A stretch of DNA of 64,000 bases, from positions 19,468,001 through 19,532,000 of the forward strand of contig OX597825.1 in the NCBI GenBank assembly GCA_951406725.2, written 5' to 3'. The stretch is from Octopus vulgaris (taxonomy: Eukaryota). The notes below the pieces were generated by a model. That model searched no databases and was not told the DNA's origin. It worked only from the letters and a program-made list of their open reading frames with translations. The position numbers were made by a program, and so were the translations under genes. The first letter of the stretch is position 1. Each line of letters opens with the position of its first letter. Of the stretch, positions 2,194 to 62,469 are shown piece by piece.

Positions 2194-2939
2194 GCATATG
2201 TTATTTTCCCTTTCCATCATTTTGTTCAATGGGTAGGTTACATTTATTGATACATCTGGACTTCAGTGCTGCCTTTCATTGGCTCATTTAATTTCATGGC
2301 CCTAATAATTTGTCTGCTCATTTTCAATAACTTTGTTGATTTGTGTATTTTTTTCAACTTATTCACTTTACGGTTTATAGAGTTGCCCCTGCTTAAATGA
2401 CGCACTGCCTGCTCAGAGTCCCAACAAGTCTCTATCTGTTTTATCTTGTTCTGCTTCATTTTCTGTTCTGACATTTAGTGTTTCTTCTTATTTCACAGAC
2501 TTCGGCATTTTCCCTTTACTTTTCTGATACATTCTTTTACACAAAACCTTCCCTCTTTACAACGCAATTTGTGAAACATGAAAATTTTTCCAACATAATT
2601 GCCTTCCATATACAATCTACTAATATCATGATTTTGCATAACATATCACCAGCAGCTTTACGTCTTACCATTTAATTTCTTTAGCGTCCTCTATTATGAT
2701 GCATGCACTGTATCCCATGACAGCCATAGCATGTGAGGTAGTAGAAGTGAAAACACTTTTACTCTTTAGGTGAAATTTTTATATCGTCTTGGTAATTATT
2801 TATTATTCAGCGTGACATTCACTTTTAATATTTTATGCTAACAGCTTCTAGGACTCCTATGTTCTAGTACACATTTTCAGCATACATTTTTTAATGCATC
2901 ATTTTATATCCTCCCGGTAAAATGATAGCATCGTAAGAG

Positions 2940-3055
2940 AGTCGGCCGAAATGCTCCGCGATATTTGTTGTTCTTTACTCTTTATTTTAAATCCCGCCGA
3001 GACCATCTTTGCTTTTTCATGCATCCGGAATTGATAAAATAAAGTGTCGGTCGAT
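2940..3055 (+). mobile_element. Highly diverged SINE family A fragment
   Basis: CCGAAATGCTCCGCGATATTT...AAATCCCGCCGAG...TTTGCTTTTTCAT...GATAAAATAAAG aligns loosely to the family A core. Confidence 0.55.
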
Positions 3056-3869
3056 GATATCGTATTATAAAGTCATCTCAAAAGTCATGAACTAAATATA
3101 TTTGTATCTGCTTATTTCTGTATCATTTGGTACTATAAATTTGAAATTTGAATCTTTACTTCGAACACTTTTCAAGAATTTGGTGGATACCTATGCATCG
3201 AATGTTATATCGAAGAATGCATCACCCTCTTTATTTAATATCTTATTAATATCTCAGTTTCTCATACAGAATATTTAAACAACTGACTTACAACCTTTTG
3301 TTTCTTTTGACCCTTCATATTGCTTTTGACTTCCTCTCCTGTGCAAGCTCTACGATTTTAAATTACGTTGAAAAGTCAATGAGGCTTTTTCGTTCTCCTA
3401 GACTTCCTCCTTTGTTTTCTTTCACTTGAGTCAGTTTTGTTTGAAGAATCGATATCTTCTGGTGTTCAGGGATCTGATCCACCACATGGTACTTGTTGAG
3501 TTGAAGCAGCAACAGTTGAAATTAAAGGAGAGGCTACTCTGAGACTGGTAATTTCTCCTTCTCATGCAGAAACATATTCATCAATGTTTAAAAGACAACG
3601 GATCATATGAAGAGGAAGGATATCATCATCAATGAATATTTCTTCTCGAGAGAATGAATACTTTTTACCCTAAAATCTGATAGCGTGTACGGAGAAGTCA
3701 GTTTTCGGGGAAATCGAAAGTAATCGAAGAATTTCAGAGATCTCATCGCTTTCCAAATGTTTTCTGTCTTCTACATATCAGTCGCGGACTTGTAGTGGTT
3801 TTAAAACGCTGCAAAACTGTTCTATCATGGGATTGCTTTTTATGTGAATATTATGGGAAATACACGACA

Positions 3870-8903: not shown

Positions 8904-9317
8904 GTGGCGAGCTGGCAGAAACGTTAGCGCGACGGGCGAAATGCTTAGCGATATTTCGTCTGCCTCTACGTTCTGAGTTCAAATTCCGCCGAGGTCGACT
9001 TTGCCTTTCATCCTTTCGGGGTCGATTAAATAAGCACCAGTTTCACACTGGGGTCGATATAATCGACTTATTCCGTTTGTCTGTCCTTGTTTGTCCTCTC
9101 AATGTTTAGCCCCTTGTGGGTAGTAATGAAGTATATATTTCGTCTGCCGTTACGTTCTGAGTTCAAATTCCGCCGAGGTCGATTTTGCCTTTCATCCTTT
9201 CGGGGTCGATTAAACAAGTACCAGTTACGGACTGGGGTAGATATAATCGGCTTAATCCGTTTGTCCCTCCTTGTTTGTCCCCTCTGTGTGTAGCCCCTTG
9301 TGGTCAGTAAAGAAATA
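8904..9317 (+). mobile_element. SINE family A tandem dimer
   Basis: A full unit followed by a second unit that restarts at the internal TATTTCGTCTGCCGTTACG (~9136). Confidence 0.9.
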
Positions 9318-9632: not shown

Positions 9633-10726
9633 TTTCTTCTTTTGTTTCAACCTAGTATTCCTTTGTTCCTTTTACGTAGAAGAGTCCTCAGAGAATTAAT
9701 TTTATACTGAGGAATTTGCTAGCACACATGCATAGCTATGAACATTTTCGACATTAGTGTGTAACATTGTGCTCACAGAAGTCACGGTATGAATGTCTAT
9801 CTAGTTATTTAAATATTTCAGATTGATAATGGTGATTATGTTATTATTTTAGGATTTCAGTTCGCTTGCAACCCAGGACATTACATTTGAAACCGTCACG
9901 TTTAATTCTACATCTTTTGTTTTTCAGAAGTTACGATGAAACTTCGACGATATTTGGCTGAGAGTTTCAATGGGACGAACGACGGTTTAGAATATTAGAT
10001 ATTATTTTCCTTCCTGCGTAATACACGTCAAGCGAGCCTATGGTAAGATACTTTACACTTGTGATCATCCTCACATATATTTAATGCTAGATAGCAGAGA
10101 AGTAGGCAGGAGGCATGTCCATTAACTCTAGTTTGACATTAATATATCTGGTCTGTACAAATTACATCCGAACTCTGTAATGATATATCTCCGGACAGTG
10201 TATACTTTACAATTTCAGTTTTCTTTATATATATATACCAGTGTAATTCATAGATAAATAATAAATTCCATGTGTTATCTCTTCCTATCTGATTATACCT
10301 GCTTTCGAAGTATCCAGTATATTGCTCAACATAGCGCTAATAACTAAAGATCGAGAACTATCAGGTTTCTACTTGATAATTTTGATGTACTACTTCAGTT
10401 TACTCCTATATTTCCTATATAAATGAGTTATATTCATATTATTGCCGACGTTCAGTAGAATCCAATATGTAAATAACAACGCTTGTGTTAATCAATGCAT
10501 GGTCCATATCATCATTTTTAGACACGTGGTAAACCTGAACAAGCAGATCAAATCATCTAGCGTGCTTCAATCGTCGACGTCTCTCTTATTCTGCTTTTTT
10601 TTCAGACTTACATTTTAGTATTGTTTGCTCCTTTAAATGCAGTACGATAGGATTTGATGGATATTTGGTTGTGTTTTCTAGCATATCAAACAGCTATTTC
10701 TGATACTTTACTATTGGTAATCTACT

Positions 10727-11124
10727 ATTCTTTTCTAATCTAGGTACAAAGCGCGAAATTTCGGGGGAGGGCGCCAGTCGATTATATCGACCCCAGTACA
10801 CAACTGGTACTTAATTTATCGACTCCGAAACGATAAAAGGCAAAATCGACATCGGCGTAATTTGAACTCAGAACGTAACAGCAGGCGAAATACCTATTTC
10901 TTTACTACCCACAAGGGGTTAAACACAGAGAGGACAAACAAGGACAGGCAAACGGATTAAGTCGATTATATCGACTCCAGTGCGTACCTGGTACTTAATT
11001 TATCGACCCAGAAAGAATGGAAGGCAAAGTCGACCTCGGCTTAATTTGAACTCAGAACGTAACGGCAGACGAAATACGGCTACGCATTTTGCCCAGCGTG
11101 CTAACGTTTCTGCCAGCTCACCGC
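10727..11124 (-). mobile_element. SINE family A dimer (tail-type 1 unit followed by tail-type 2 unit)
   Basis: Reverse strand: head, core, tail 1 ending AAAGAAATAGGTATTTCGCCTG, second core, tail 2 CCCTCCCCGAAATTTC..CCTAGATTAGAAAAGAAT. Confidence 0.9.
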
Positions 11125-17637: not shown

Positions 17638-18222
17638 AGGCACTGAGCTGGTAGAAACGCTAGCACGACGGGCGGAATGATCAGCGGTACTTCGTATGCC
17701 GTTACTTTCTGAGTTCAAATTCCGCCGAGTTCGACTTTGCCTTTCCCCCTTTCGGCGTCGATAAATTAAGTACCAGTTACGCACTGGGTTCGATGTAATC
17801 GACTTAATCCGTTTGTCTGTTCTTGTTTGTCCTCTCTGTGTTTAGCCCCTTGTGGGTAGTAAAGAAATAGGTATTTCGTCTGTCGTTACATTCTGTGTTC
17901 AAATTCTGTTCAGGTCGACTTTGCCTTTTATCCTTTCGGAGTCGATTAAATAAGTACCAGTTACGCACTGGGATCGATATAATCGACTTAATCCGTTTGT
18001 TTGTCCTTGTTTGTCCTCTCTGTGTTTAGCCCCTTGTGAGTAGCAAAGAAATAGGTATTTCGTGTGTCTTTACGTTCTGAGTTCAAATTCCGCCGAGGTC
18101 AACGTTGCTTTTCATCCTTTCAGGGTCGATAAATCAGGTACCAGTTGCGTACTGGCGTCGATCTAATTGACTGGCCCTCTTCCCCAAAATTTCAGGCTTT
18201 GTGCCTAGAGTAGAAACGAATA
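17638..18222 (+). mobile_element. SINE family A tandem trimer
   Basis: Three cores. Junctions AAAGAAATAGGTATTTCGT at ~17861-17879 and ~18046-18063. The last unit has the type-2 tail. Confidence 0.92.
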
Positions 18223-22965: not shown

Positions 22966-23131
22966 AACAACTTGATCATTCACATCATTATCATTACCAT
23001 CATACTATCAGCATCACTACAACTACTATCAGCACTCTATCATCATCATTGTCGACGTCGTCGTCGTTACCGTCGTCATCATACATGATCATTACAATTA
23101 TCGCCATCTTCTTCATCATCACATTTATCAC

Positions 23132-23785
23132 TTTGTACGGCCACACCTTGAATACTGCTGCCCACTGTGGTCTCCTCACACAAGACAAAACATCTCCAGA
23201 ATTGAGTCACCCCAGAGGGCTCTCACTAAACAAATTGAAGGCATGGCTGCTCTCGATTATTGGGATCGCCTTAAAGCCTTGAAACTTTACTCCCTCCAGC
23301 GTCGCCGTGAGCGGTACATCATTTGTACGATGTGGAAAATATACCGCCAACTTTGCCCAAACGACCTAAACATTAGCTTCAAGGTTCATCCAAGACTTGG
23401 ACCACGGGCTATACGTCCCCTGCCAAATTCAAGATCACAACATACATGTACACTGCAACATAATTTCTTTTCCTCAACAGGCCCTGCCCTATTTAACATT
23501 GTCCCGAGGGAGATCAAAGAGGAAAAGGATCCCATCAACTTCAAACAGAGTCTGGATAGATTCCTTCAAAGAATACCAGATAAGCCACCCATAATTGGAT
23601 ACAACTCACCCAACAAGAACTCACTACTTGAACAAAACTGGATACAACTCACCCAACAAGAACTCACTACTTGAACAAAACTTGACTTAAACATGATTCG
23701 AATAATTCTATCAGGTGGTGCTATTAAGTTAGACATGGCCTGGACCAATCTCTGGTCGAAACATATCTAAGTTTTCTAAGTTTTC
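23132..23785 (+). mobile_element. 5'-truncated CR1-group LINE 3' end (RT C-terminal region + 3' UTR)
   Basis: One open frame: FVRPHLEYCCPLWSPHTRQNISRIESPQRALTKQIEGMAALDYWDRLKALKLYSLQRRRER...FNIVPREIK...FKQSLDRFLQRIPDKP. Ends in short tandem CTAAGTTTT repeats. Confidence 0.9.
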
Positions 23786-26487: not shown

Positions 26488-26590
26488 TTATTATTATTAT
26501 TATTATTATTATGGTCACTGATCTGGAATCGAACTCAGAATCTTGGATTTAGTAGCCTGCGCTCTTAACCACTAAGCCATGTGCCCATAT
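26488..26590 (-). mobile_element. tRNA-like head + (AAT)n linker of the hammerhead-bearing element family
   Basis: Minus strand GGGCACATGGCTTAGTGGTTAAGAGCGCAGGCTACTAAATCCAAGATTCTGAGTTCGATTCCAGATCAGTGACC(ATA)n, homologous to 55886-55985. Confidence 0.88.
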
Positions 26591-26594
26591 GAAA

Positions 26595-26890
26595 TTACTG
26601 TGTGATGTTCCTCTACCCTTATTTTGAGGGGGCGGCATGTTTCACCTTTTTATAACCTACCACAGCTGCAAGGGATGGAGTGCGCGCAGTTTTTGATCAT
26701 ATTCTATTCTACTGCTGCTTTTACCCGAAGGAGATATTAGCGAAGTGTTGTGTTACTCTTGAATACTGTCCTGATGTCATATGGGCCGCAGAACTTTTGT
26801 ATCTTTTCGGAGAGGCCTTTCATATAGGGTAGACAGACTGCATACAGTTTATTAGTTTCATCCCCTCTGTTCTTCATAATTGGAGTAGAT
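26595..26890 (-). pseudogene. Penelope-like retroelement linker + GIY-YIG endonuclease remnant
   Basis: Single frame with three stops: VCLPYMKGLSEKIQKFCGPYDIRTVFKSNTTLR*YLLRVK..KNCAHSIPCSCGRL*KGETCRPLKIRVEEH. It fits the LPY..G.SE.I...VY.IPC.C...Y.GET.R.L..R..EH pattern of Penelope-like elements. Confidence 0.9.
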
Positions 26891-27199
26891 AATAGTTGCT
26901 AAATAGATTGTTAATGAGCTTGATCATATTCTTTGATAATTTATTTGTGTATTAATGGAAACCAATTATAATTTAACTAAATTTCGTTGAGTACTCTTCA
27001 GCAAATATTCAGCGCGAATATAGATGATATACATGTATAACCAATAGATAATGCCTTTTTTAAACACTTCTTTTATTTTTCAAACTTAAGATAAACAAAG
27101 TTAATTTTTAATCTAAAATATGCTCTCCTTCATTTTCCACAATGCTCTTCCATCTGTCTGGTAGGCTTGTTAGACACCTCTTCCAAATTCAGTTGCTCG

Positions 27200-55217: not shown

Positions 55218-55684
55218 GTCTAGACGGACAAACTGTATAAGGTGTTGCCTTGGAGGGGGAGAGATATGCGCGAGCATGATTAATGAATAATATCCAAAAG
55301 ATATGAGTTTTGAAACACGTTGCTATTCTTCTCTCTAGCCCGGTGACAAAACCTCAACATACAAAATTTTGACAAAGAGAGATTCGAAAAGTTACGATCG
55401 TGCTATTCTTTGTGTTTTGAGATATTCTACCTTGGATTGGTGTATTTAATGTACGCATCATATTTCAGGTTAAATAATTGTTATTTGTATTTTTGCTATA
55501 GTTTGTAAAATGTGTAAAGAGGAAAGTAACAGTTTCGATATTCTTCTACCTTCACCGCACAGGGAACTTTTCTTTTTAATTAAATTAATTAATTAATTTC
55601 TGCAGGAACATTGCATAAAATCATTTGGTCTTAATGTACATTATTTACATTTGACGGATATTTGTCTTCATCTTGTTTGTTGTT

Positions 55685-55730
55685 AACACAACGTTTCGGC
55701 TGATATACCCTCCAGCCTTCATCAGGTGTC
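55685..55730 (-). ncRNA. Minimal type I hammerhead ribozyme motif
   Basis: Minus strand GACAC-CTGATGA-A-GGCTG-GAGGGTATAT-CAGCC-GAAA-C-GT-T-GTGTT: stem I GACAC/GTGTT, perfect 5-bp stem II, loop-less palindromic stem III (ACGT), GTT triplet. Confidence 0.85.
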
Positions 55731-56052
55731 TTGGGGAAATTTCGAACCTGGGTTCTCATTCCTAAGGTATTTTTCGGTGTTATTCTTCGTATTATTATTG
55801 TTATTACTATTATATTCAGGTCACTGCTTGGAATCAAACTCGGAATCTTGGAGTTAGTAGCTCTCGCTCTGAACCACTATGTCACGGGCATATGACATAG
55901 TGGTTAAGAGCGCGAGTTACTAACCCCAAGATTCAAAGTTCGATTCCAGGCAGTGACCTAACTAATAATAATAATAATAATAATAATGATGATGATGATG
56001 ATGACATCGAAAAATACCTTAGGAATGAGAACACAGGTTCGAAATTGCCCAA

Positions 56053-56098
56053 GACACCTGATGAAAGCTAGAGGGTATATCAGCCGAAACGTTGTGTT
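56053..56098 (+). ncRNA. Minimal type I hammerhead ribozyme motif (second arm; stem II mutated)
   Basis: GACAC-CTGATGA(56058-56064)-AAGCTAGAGGGTATATCAGCC-GAAA(56086-56089)-CGTT-GTGTT. Confidence 0.8.
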
Positions 56099-57349
56099 AA
56101 CAACAAACAAGATGAGGACAAATATCCGTCAAATGTAAATAATGTACATAATTCCTCATCTCTTAAATATAGAACTGTATTGGTCTTAAGGTTTATAATA
56201 ATGACGCCAGCATGTTTCGAACCAGTACCACACGTTTGTGACGCCAGTGGTGATGATTTTGCACTTAAGGAAAATGAAAGGTGAACATCAACTTTTATCC
56301 GATACGACTTCAGCAAGTATCGAAACCTCATTGGTCTGCTTGTATTTACTAACTTTTACTTACTACAGTAAACGAAATGTGATGAGATACGTTTCAAAAT
56401 ATATCTGTTTTTGCTACTAAATTTTCAAAGACTTGCACCAACTTGTTAAGGTTGAATTAAGCAACTCCAGGCAGGTGTTATACGTAATTGAAATGGTTAT
56501 AGAATAAAGGGAGTTACGGCATCGATAACATGCTGATGTATTGATGAAAGAAAGATGAAAGTCCTGCTTGCGTGTAACTCAGCTGTTAACAGATGTGCGG
56601 CCATTGACAACTATAGAACAAAGTTCACAATAGTGAATCAAAGCTAGGAAATTAAATTTATCTTTAGTGTTTATTCCTCTCATCACATATGTTATTCAGA
56701 ATTATCTCTTTACGATCTTCACAAATACGTGTAGTATTTATAATGAACTCTGGGTAGATATTTACTAATACCTCATCTAAATCTGTTTTGAATATCTCGT
56801 ATCTATTTTTGCTTGTCTATATTTTTCAATGCACTTTGACGAAGTACGTCTAAGTTATTTGCGAGTGGACGGGAGAGGAGAGGAGTTTATCAAATCCACC
56901 CCAGTAATGTACTAGTAGTAGTAGTAATAGTTATTTTATAGATTGAGTATGCCTGCGAATAAATGGTATTTGTTGTGATTTGCACTTAGAATGTGGTGGG
57001 TGAGGGTTTCTTACTGCCAGTTTGAAAACTCAATCTTTCCTGCATAATTTACATAATATTGATTTCTAACTTCGATGAAAGAACACATACTTAACTTAGT
57101 GGGAAGAAGCATTTCACCATAAATAACAAAGTACTTGACTGGACTTTATTTCATCGACGTCGAAGGCTAAATGCAAAACTGAGCTCGGTGTAACTTGACT
57201 TAATATAACAAAGGTCCGTAACAAGACACCCCACAGCATTCTGTTCTATGCTATCAATTCTACACCTTAACTACACTTATTAATCCAAACCACCTTCGTA
57301 ATATTCTCATGAGCCGGGGGTTTTAAAAGCAGGCTTTGGCATTCTAAAA

Positions 57350-59715: not shown

Positions 59716-59974
59716 TATTTTATATGGCTAAACAGAAGATACAAAGAGCTTTTTGACGCTAATGTTAAATTTCGATCTCATAGTTATAAGCATAACAAAG
59801 TGATAACGGTCCATGATGCACTGTTAAGTGTCTTGAGCGTGTAACGTTCTCGGAATACCCGAGGGAAGTTTTTCGAATGAATAAAATTTAAAATTCGCAT
59901 ATATATATGATGACTAGCATAAGGGGACTATCTGAAACTCTATCAATGGGGTATTTTGCTTTGTTGTAGTAACA

Positions 59975-60233
59975 TTAGTGGTAGTAGTAGCAGAGGCAGC
60001 AAAAGCAGTAATAGGTACAATCTTCGTCATCGCAGTAGTAGTAGTAGTAGCAACAGCTGTAGTAACATTATTAGCGGCAATAACAGCAACAGTAGTTGTA
60101 GTAGTAGTAGTAGTAGTAGTAGCAGCTGCAGTAGATGTAGTAGTGGCAGTAGTAGTAGCAGCAACAGAAGCAGCAGCAGTAGTAGTATTAGCAGCAGCAA
60201 CAGCAGCAGTGACAGTAGTTGTAATAGTAGTAT

Positions 60234-60272
<39 letters not shown>

Positions 60273-60383
60273 TAGTAGCAGCTGCAGTAGATGTAGTAGT
60301 GGCAGTAGTAGTAGCAGCAACAGAAGCAGCAGCAGTAGTAGTATTAGCAGCAGCAGCAGTGACAGTAGTTGTAATAGTAGCAT

Positions 60384-60419
<36 letters not shown>

Positions 60420-60539
60420 TAGTAGTAGCAGCTGCAGTAGATGTAGTAGTGGCAGTAGTAGTAGCAGCAACAGAAGCAGCAGCAGTAGTAGTATTAGCAG
60501 CAGCAACAGCAGCAGTGACAGTAGTTGTAATAGTAGCAT

Positions 60540-60578
<39 letters not shown>

Positions 60579-60698
60579 TAGTAGTAGCAGCTGCAGTAGA
60601 TGTAGTAGTGGCAGTAGTAGTAGCAGCAACAGAAGCAGCAGCAGTAGTAGTATTAGCAGCAGCAACAGCAGCAGTGACAGTAGTTGTAATAGTAGTAT

Positions 60699-60737
<39 letters not shown>

Positions 60738-60857
60738 TAGTAGTAGCAGCTGCAGTAGATGTAGTAGTGGCAGTAGTAGTAGCAGCAGCAGAAGCAGCAG
60801 CAGTAGTAGTATTAGCAGCAGCAACAGCAGCAGTGACAGTAGTTGTAATAGTAGTAT

Positions 60858-60896
<39 letters not shown>

Positions 60897-61013
60897 TAGT
60901 AGCAGCTGCAGTAGATGTAGTAGTGGCAGTAGTAGTAGCAGCAACAGAAGCAGCAGCAGTAGTAGTATTAGCAGCAGCAACAGCAGCAGTGACAGTAGTT
61001 GTAATAGTAGTAT

Positions 61014-61055
<42 letters not shown>

Positions 61056-61536
61056 TAGTAGCAGCTGCAGTAGATGTAGTAGTGGCAGTAGTAGTAGCAG
61101 CAACAGAAGCAGCAGCGTAGTAGTATTAGCAGCAGCAGCAGCAGCAGTGACAGTAGTTGTAATAGTAGTATCAGCAGCAGCAACAGCAGCAGCAGTAGTA
61201 GTAGTAGTAGTAGTAGCAACAGCAGCAGTGGCAATAGTAGTATTAGTAGTATAGTAGTAGTAGCAGTAGAAGTAACAGCAGCTGTAATAATAGTAGTAGT
61301 AGTAGTAGTAGTAGCAGCTGCAGTAGATGTAGTAGTGGCAGCAGCAACAGAAGCAGCAGCAGTAGTAGTATTAGCTGCAGCAACAGCAGCAGTGACAGTA
61401 GTTGTAATAGTAGTATCATCATCAGCAGCAGCAGCAGTAGTAGTAGTAGTAGTAGTAGTAGCAACAGCAGCAGTGGCAATAGTAGTATTAGTATTAGTAT
61501 TAGTAGTAGTAGCAGTAGAAGTAACAGCAGCTGTAA

Positions 61537-61593
<57 letters not shown>

Positions 61594-61615
61594 CAGCAGT
61601 AGCAGCAAGAGTAGA
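59975..61615. repeat. Higher-order minisatellite built from AGC/AGT triplets
   Basis: Marker GCTGCAGTAGATG at 60125, 60281, 60431, 60590, 60749, 60905, 61064 and 61317 (periods 156, 150, 159, 159, 156, 159, then 253). Confidence 0.95.
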
Positions 61616-62469
61616 GAATCGTAGTTAAGATGCATTGCACGATCTTCTGCAGCAGCAGTTTCTAATGAAAAATGATAATTCATACACATCTATAATTGTA
61701 TTTGAATTATAATTTTATAATTACAGTAGCTGCTGCGAGAGAGAAATCTTGAAATTGTGCTTTTGGGGTTGGGGGAAGATAAGATTGTTGTTTTCTTAAC
61801 GTTCATGTTCGTTTTTCACTCATGAAAACAAAGAAACACGAAAGCATGATTGAAAGATAACAAGAAAGTGATATCGTATGTGTGTTAGTGTCAGTGTTTG
61901 TGTATGAGAATATGCACATGGGTGTGTGATTGAGTGTGTGTGTGTGTGTGTGAAAGAGACAGACAAACAGAAAGACAGAGAGAGGAAGGGGAAAACATGG
62001 CCAAACACGAAAGCATGGCAGTTATTTATTCAATAAAATGCTAACCCAAATTTGACTTGAAACAATTTGAACTGACGTGGTGTTGCCAAATGTACACTGT
62101 ATGTGACAACTATTTCTGAAAAGTAAAACAAAAGGTCGTGGCATTGAGCGAGAGATGTTTCATAGTCAGATTAGAATGGTTTGGTCTGCGGTGGTCTGGT
62201 GTGGTCTGGTCTGGTCTGGCACGGTGTGGAGGTTTTTATAAAAGATAGAAATCAATATTTTTGGTTATGAATAACTTATATTATGCTAAGTAACACCGAG
62301 TTGTGTCCTATGATCAGAAATTTGAATTACGTGTATATAAATACAAAATATAGCAGGATTAAATATAAGAGCTAAAGAGAAACGGTTGTAGATATAAATA
62401 ATTATTAAGCTCCATATTTGGAATCATGCGTGCACATATATAAAGGTATAGGTACACACACACACGCAC

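Follow-up and report, generated by a model that had tools for sequence, protein, structure and literature searches.

The pseudo-LTR of an octopus Penelope-like element opens with a tRNA-like head that likely serves as an internal Pol III promoter

Penelope-like elements (PLEs) of the Penelope/Poseidon type, such as anole PAc, D. virilis Penelope and Schistosoma Cercyon, encode a reverse transcriptase (RT) followed by a C-terminal GIY-YIG domain, and are described with a pseudo-LTR that overlaps the ORF start, a minimal hammerhead, an inverted 5' copy, a one-sided tail of 30-40 nt and two priming sites (PMC11167929, PMC8557442, PMC4209133). The inverted copy with its one-sided tail was described by Craig et al. 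(PMC8557442), and minimal hammerheads on opposite strands, 100-700 bp apart and with low cleavage in vitro, by Cervera and de la Pena (PMC4209133). In the anole element studied by Frangieh et al., RT initiates at two internal sites at the ORF start, the hammerhead overlaps the start codon, and insertion does not need cleavage (PMC11167929). The D. virilis Penelope promoter is internal and LINE-like, of the Inr/DPE type (PMC2377424); Pol III is thought to be restricted to short RNAs (PMC10886601).

The schistosome repeats Sm-alpha and Sj-alpha carry a Pol III-type promoter and a hammerhead within a short repeat (PMC6765202, PMC2770079); by description they are tandem repeats that encode no protein and, once cleaved, keep the promoter at the 3' end of each unit, with no coding partner named, and the abundant schistosome hammerheads are canonical (PMC4209133). 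In TRIMp3 (Cassandra, Helenus, Ajax), non-autonomous LTR elements of 0.3-1.3 kb, the terminal repeat holds a small-RNA-derived Pol III promoter, probably acquired via SINE insertion, and the autonomous partners are expected to use Pol II (PMC10886601). Chlamys MRC1 and the metazoan non-LTR retrozymes are short elements thought to be mobilised by PLE enzymes, with no tRNA head reported in their descriptions (PMC8557442, PMC7761336); retrozymes are tandem and make circular RNA, and their mobilisation by PLEs has the standing of a proposal (PMC7761336). Among octopus SINEs, OK, OR1 and OR2 have tRNA-derived heads, and OR1 and OR2 are CORE-SINEs (PMC4824008, PMC4758252, PMC5804259). A 2026 octopus annotation counts 190 Penelope-like families, and no mention of a hammerhead or pLTR was found in its main text and supplement (PMC13282606).

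The window analyzed here, a 64,000-nt stretch of DNA, is part of a 2.8-Gb host genome (G000 in the counts below). It contains a single insertion of two head-to-head units, which the preliminary description had read as a non-coding parasite copied by a Penelope enzyme. Our preferred explanation, to which we assign a probability of roughly 0.6, is that the units are pseudo-LTR copies of a coding PLE whose tRNA-derived head likely acts as an internal Pol III promoter. The features of the insertion, and of a related joint elsewhere in the window, are as follows.

55625-55634, no strand: left target-site duplication TTGGTCTTAA, an exact repeat of the other edge
55635-55885, minus: inverted, tail-less pseudo-LTR copy with head from about tRNA +7, linker, ORF start and hammerhead (arm alignment)
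55685-55730, minus: minimal type I hammerhead motif of the left arm, stems I and II intact, stem III loop-less; activity predicted
55886-55959, plus: tRNA-derived head with +1 at 55886, A box 55893-55903 and B box 55938-55947 (tRNA alignment, 5'-end peak of copies)
55960-56004, plus: (AAT)n/(GAT)n microsatellite linker, variable between copies
56025-56179, plus: PLE ORF codons 1 to about 52, ATG at 56025 (same stretch in frame with the ORF in L222)
56053-56098, plus: minimal type I hammerhead motif of the right arm, predicted cut 56093/56094, two changes in stem II
56150-56179, plus: one-sided Penelope tail of about 30 nt, between two preferred 3' ends (3'-end clusters, pair survey)
56180-56189, no strand: right target-site duplication TTGGTCTTAA
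26601-26894, minus: degenerate ORF piece of the same PLE, linker and start of the endonuclease domain (translation)
26488-26586, minus: tRNA-derived head and (AAT)n, hammerhead part missing; about 14 nt of filler connect the head's +1 with the ORF piece

The structure of the insertion was confirmed. Within the window TTGGTCTTAA occurs at 55625-55634 and 56180-56189 and nowhere else, which bears out the 10-bp target duplication. The two arms (55635-55885 on the minus strand and from 55886 on the plus strand) align with 88.8% identity across 258 nt, in keeping with the description of two head-to-head units that each have a tRNA-like head, an (AAT)n linker and a minimal hammerhead; the extra tail is one-sided as reported, with 56150-56179 present in the right arm and absent from the left. 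Other details needed correction. The supposed 8-nt spacer GGGCATAT (55886-55893) is no spacer, being +1 to +8 of the right-arm head; the quoted A and B boxes match the right arm exactly but the left arm inexactly, and the quoted stem II GGCTG is exact in the left arm but differs in the right. At 26488-26890, where a fusion had been noted, a Penelope ORF piece is joined to a tRNA-like head. The translation of 26601-26894 (minus) we take, by motif reading, to be a Penelope-type linker and endonuclease start, and this piece is 88-91% identical to 39 other scored places. In the left arm the frame from ATG 55759 translates as a PLE N terminus; in the right arm a one-base deletion breaks the frame. 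Neither Rfam, run at the gathering score, nor ARAGORN with default settings matched anything in the window, and Rfam hits ranked by E-value, all hairpin-driven miRNA matches far below the cut-off, were rejected.

Both arms carry the parts of a minimal type I hammerhead: a core made of CUGANGA and GAAA, the first two stems, and a stem III without a loop. The CTGATGA core lies at 56058 (+) and 55725 (-), GAAACGTT at 56086 (+) and 55697 (-), and stem I (GACAC/GTGTT) is common to both arms; the cleavage site proposed earlier, 56093/56094, fits the motif. Rfam models do not match, and the core is intact in 130 of 233 units. A cut at 56093/56094 would separate head from tail, so that headed copies stem from uncleaved RNA; the 5' ends of copies show no pile-up at the cleavage site (7 seen against 5.9 expected, P = 0.37).

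The unit from head to tail is almost certainly the pseudo-LTR of a coding PLE, probably of the Penelope/Poseidon type. The tRNA-like head lies 3' of the ORF end at 22 of 24 loci picked by the window's ORF piece and at 18 of 20 picked by an 806-aa relative (40/44 in total), and the hammerhead body does so at 21/24 and 19/20 of the same loci. When the sequence is walked to the ORF start, the hammerhead body and tail continue uninterrupted into the ORF N terminus. At locus L222 the head, microsatellite, ATG, hammerhead and tail form a single frame with that N terminus, and this stretch is 61% identical to protein P0127 from residue 43. In the near-full copies L225, L230 and L235 the ORF is followed, after about 45 nt, by head and body again, and exact 29-mers of the tail-ORF junction occur 48 times in G000. 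The layout is head (A and B boxes), (AAT)n, ATG, hammerhead, tail, the rest of an approximately 2.5-kb ORF for RT and a putative GIY-YIG domain, stop, about 45 nt, and head; a pseudo-LTR is present at both ORF ends and overlaps the ORF start, as in described PLEs. A Penelope element sharing the unit's 3' segment, as had been predicted, does exist, and the hammerhead and tail are its ORF start. The proposal that a Penelope RT/GIY-YIG enzyme does the copying was probably right. The idea of a separate non-coding parasite with a borrowed tail falls, since the coding element's pseudo-LTR comprises the entire unit together with its head, and the unit encodes the ORF start.

Upstream of the ORF piece are RT motifs (RVT_1, E = 1.4e-10), and 775 codon columns of the ORF are free of a majority stop. 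None of the 56 copies of this coding element that were scored has a fully intact ORF. The GIY-YIG motif is conserved among ORF relatives, one of which is named GIY-YIG by its source, and the C-terminal domain (the confident part of a predicted model) aligns to I-TevI with Z = 5.8 and rmsd 3.2 over 67 residues, where the tool's trust level is 8. The Pfam GIY-YIG model does not match this family's ORF; the putative endonuclease is assigned from motif conservation and this modest fold match. Foldseek with the weak model (pLDDT 55.6) gave no match at E<=0.001, and searches of solved structures returned generic RTs only. The closest named protein relative, from Octopus sinensis, is 77% identical, which makes an octopus host probable; the relatives P0127, P0137 and P0003 are 60-69% identical. 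We assume a Poseidon-type placement from familiar motifs and from dissimilarity to a Neptune-like family. That Neptune-like family, found by a Pfam GIY-YIG search of G000 (781-aa frames), was rejected as a partner: in 30 loci out of 150 scored it shares nothing with the unit, and no hammerhead of this type lies beside its endonuclease. It has many open 781-aa frames with equal scores (L037, L042 and others) and is apparently young.

The family is large. An exact 34-mer from the hammerhead body has 2562 matches in G000 against 0 for the reversed control, far above chance expectation, and a search with the body gave 1857 candidates, of which the 40 scored are 94-100% identical. Scaled by the share of unselected copies that keep the 34-mer (4/44 and 3/101), the family comprises very roughly 28,000-86,000 arms; copies diverge by about 5-8% from the column majorities. 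Short units (120) and ORF-linked units (52) have the same majority base at every column. The short copies resemble SINEs and may even function as such, but they do not read as a SINE2, a non-coding lineage with only a tail in common with its autonomous partner: the whole unit belongs to the coding element, and there are no fixed differences.

It is nevertheless conceivable, if unlikely, that an independent SINE mobilised by the PLE exists, with solo copies serving as their own Pol III templates and lineage and the coding enzyme acting in trans. Short units outnumber ORF-linked ones about 4-5 times among headed copies; both boxes are present in them, and their majority head and body are free of T4 runs. 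A linked subfamily is commoner among them, with A at head +51 in 47/119 short against 5/42 long units (P = 0.001, uncorrected). As the samples were picked by similarity, such ratios are biased. Against this, short and long units have no fixed difference, and the subfamily has ORF-linked members too (30/124 short, 4/39 long, P = 0.07). Moreover, the anole enzyme needs ORF RNA far past the priming sites (PMC11167929), which most solo copies lack. Such a SINE can coexist with the preferred explanation, and solo copies may be re-transcribed as SINEs.

The new feature of the pseudo-LTR is that it opens with what alignment identifies as a tRNA-derived head bearing A and B boxes; the tRNA-type head named earlier was confirmed by colinear alignment to host tRNAs from +1. 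The best match is a tRNA-Arg(TCG) in L396, which scores 64 where 200 shuffles reach 45 at most, with several isotypes scoring near it among the 30 host tRNA loci fetched, and ARAGORN at relaxed score calls one of three heads. The position of the head fits a type 2 internal Pol III promoter.

To describe where copies end, we number the head from the T of TAGTGG, so that tRNA +1 is at -12. The first 100 34-mer matches listed, all on contig C1, gave 96 loci after overlaps were merged and L017 was left out. In this sample 87 heads were found across 67 loci and 26 of them terminate within the head; of the 61 arms reaching -7, 48 end between -7 and -19 and 13 extend further. The density of ends is 0.060/nt between -7 and -19 against about 0.004/nt beyond, a roughly 15-fold excess, with peaks at -12 (tRNA +1) and -19. 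The latter includes about 5-7 ends at palindromic joints, where the alignment runs on too far, that were recoded to this position. A second sample has the same limit (16/17 arms). Among 30 loci picked by the head, 25 have no ORF or UTR upstream and 5 do, the hammerhead body follows the head in 25, and no other shared tail that would mark a separate SINE was found. Six of the 48 exact tail-ORF junction copies have a same-strand head, with ends at +42, +19, 0, -12, -14 and -20, and L222, a headed copy running into the ORF, starts at about -9. The ORF end lies upstream of the 5' repeat in none of the 7 headed copies that run into the ORF, and it is these 7 only that test the start of the coding RNA. 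Exact 26-mers occur 195 times in G000 for the UTR-head junction and 1062 times for the head, a rough guide only as their CpG content differs. Three joints of ORF piece to head, the window's included, fall at -18 to -12 with filler, as would be expected for a template jump from an RNA end. Because copies end at the head and none of the 7 ORF-running copies extends past it, the RNA 5' end quite probably sits there, in short and ORF-bearing RNA alike. A limit this sharp would map the RNA start of a PLE from DNA alone.

We lean towards Pol III as the polymerase that makes RNA starting at the head. A bolder version, which we regard as doubtful, is that Pol III transcribes the whole coding element (about 2.9 kb) from a captured tRNA promoter, the ORF being purged of oligo-T terminators and the repeat doubling as a SINE. 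By column majority the sense strand has no T4 run over 2.48 kb; the 775 majority codons also have none, where synonymous shuffling predicts 2.6 (P = 0.045) and a looser null 3.7 (P = 0.0125), and Neptune-type copies in the same genome have 6-7 per 1.8 kb. The T-run gap is modest: single natural copies, which are decayed, do not show it (2 runs against 3.4 expected, P = 0.29; 3 against 3.1, P = 0.63), and T4 is equally missing from 8 of 27 distant PLE spans. Also weighing against Pol III are the Inr/DPE-type promoter of D. virilis Penelope (PMC2377424), the restriction to short RNAs supposed for this polymerase (PMC10886601) and the small hairpin described below. If Pol III did make the coding RNA, its translation without a cap and the role of the hammerhead would call for an explanation. 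Of the words searched in public sequencing runs, about 0.6-0.7 are present in four coded organisms, and insect and termite runs hold small shares, which were set aside. Contigs from four public runs extend from the ORF end through the head into the body, and their depth changes stepwise at the head; their RNA label is a guess, and contigs cannot reveal starts or expression.

The 5' limit could also arise if the head were a passenger, an old tRNA-derived piece of the 3' UTR in an element transcribed by Pol II or by read-through, with the limit set by RT stalling at a hairpin or by a chance Pol II start; we consider this improbable. A small hairpin does span -19 to -8, can form in the RNA as well as in the cDNA, and could halt cDNA synthesis or make the cDNA fold back, but the 5'-end peaks at -12 and -19 fall inside and past it rather than ahead of it, -12 coincides with tRNA +1, and as cDNA the hairpin is weak (-2.8 kcal/mol in L077; -5.2 kcal/mol with flanks in L063). 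The known PLE promoters are LINE-like (PMC2377424), and inverted short hammerhead PLE copies are common without a tRNA head (PMC4209133, PMC8557442), both of which suit a passenger; the 0/7 count of ORF ends before a headed 5' repeat and the absence of T4 runs from the majority ORF do not.

Inverted pairs are frequent, with 85 head-to-head pairs among 282 units examined and a tail on one arm only in 72 of the 85. Flanks of 8-15 nt are shared in 39/67 inverted pairs against 1/67 controls, and the 3' ends of copies cluster at body positions 140-149 and 171-176, about 30 nt apart. Within a pair, both arms tend to carry the same state of three linked subfamily markers (P = 1e-3, 6e-10 and 2e-8) and of a fourth site (P = 0.002), with no agreement at five further sites; the shared markers indicate that both arms come from one source lineage. 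An inverted pair with one tail is the known signature of Penelope insertion and a by-product of it. For all the frequency of pairs, it is very improbable that the pair itself is a working unit of paired ribozymes or hairpin RNA, since the two hammerheads lie on opposite strands and a single transcript cannot carry both in sense, joints and arm lengths differ at each locus, one-sided tails and target duplications are a described PLE insertion product (PMC8557442), and no re-copied shared pair junction was seen among the loci examined.

Under the preferred explanation, a coding PLE with a promoter-bearing repeat, the RNA would begin 0-7 nt ahead of the head's tRNA +1, as the copy ends suggest. 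The element's enzyme would nick AT-rich DNA, and RT would start within the uncleaved RNA at two ORF-start sites about 30 nt apart, for which the anole element offers an in vitro precedent. Priming on the last repeat would yield 5'-truncated copies bearing the ORF, and priming on the first repeat short head-to-tail copies. Where both target strands prime on RNA of one source, the product would be two inverted copies, only one of them tailed, between duplicated target sites, the form seen in the window; the hammerhead would act separately from the copying step. Many tail-crossing copies (L412-L459) stop only 20-500 nt into the ORF, which suggests that priming also occurs beyond the tail or that short RNAs exist there.

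The octopus element, with its putative GIY-YIG domain, shares the organization of the described PLEs but differs in that its pseudo-LTR opens with an A/B-box tRNA head that marks the 5' limit of copies, where Penelope has an Inr/DPE-type promoter (PMC2377424). Compared by description with Sm-alpha and Sj-alpha, its hammerhead is of the minimal type and its unit is the repeat of a coding element; unlike in TRIMp3, the head belongs to a coding PLE. The SINEs OK, OR1 and OR2 come from what is probably the same animal group, but only the microsatellite and about 20 nt separate the octopus head from the ORF start, which leaves no room for a CORE of about 60 bp, a comparison of lengths rather than of aligned sequence. 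A metagenome scan for PLE relatives found sequences that are only 28-53% identical, and no A/B pair was found directly 3' of the ORF among 80 distant PLE loci, a set with many short or truncated sequences. Two of the 80, both metagenome contigs (L243:886, L287:1665), have tRNA-like A/B-box sequences upstream of the PLE ORF match, which could be ordinary SINEs or a parallel case. No PLE repeat with a tRNA head turned up in a search of the open literature; Repbase, Dfam and SINEBase lay outside its scope, and the family may be listed there already, under SINE or under Penelope.

To our knowledge, the known partners of SINEs are LINEs. In a PLE that carries its own tRNA promoter, internal priming would suffice to make SINE-like copies of the repeat that holds the promoter, without the help of a second element, a testable route for the origin of PLE-dependent SINEs and a caution that such units may be listed under SINEs in repeat libraries. 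Should the full Pol III reading hold, the element would show directly how a SINE arises from the very retrotransposon that mobilises it.

Several other repeats were seen in passing. The 3' end of another repeat lies recurrently inside the (AAT)n linker of the pseudo-LTR (L121:5473-6012, L122, L123, L025, L215), which suggests an element targeting AAT microsatellites; in L087 (oriented 2203-3255) the linker is directly followed by the start of a 351-aa open frame that belongs to another kind of retroelement. In the window, a 232-aa frame at 22976-23674 adjoins a long AAT tract and, by motif, presumably resembles the C-terminal part of a LINE RT. A dispersed repeat of about 350 nt, probably a common host SINE, has three copies that are 85-87% alike and lie in both orientations (window 8906-9252, 10726-11122 and 17644-18222). 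L387 holds tRNA-Cys genes and variants in a tandem cluster, and window 59914-61628 is a long compound trinucleotide array with higher-order repeats, and more than one of its reading frames is open.
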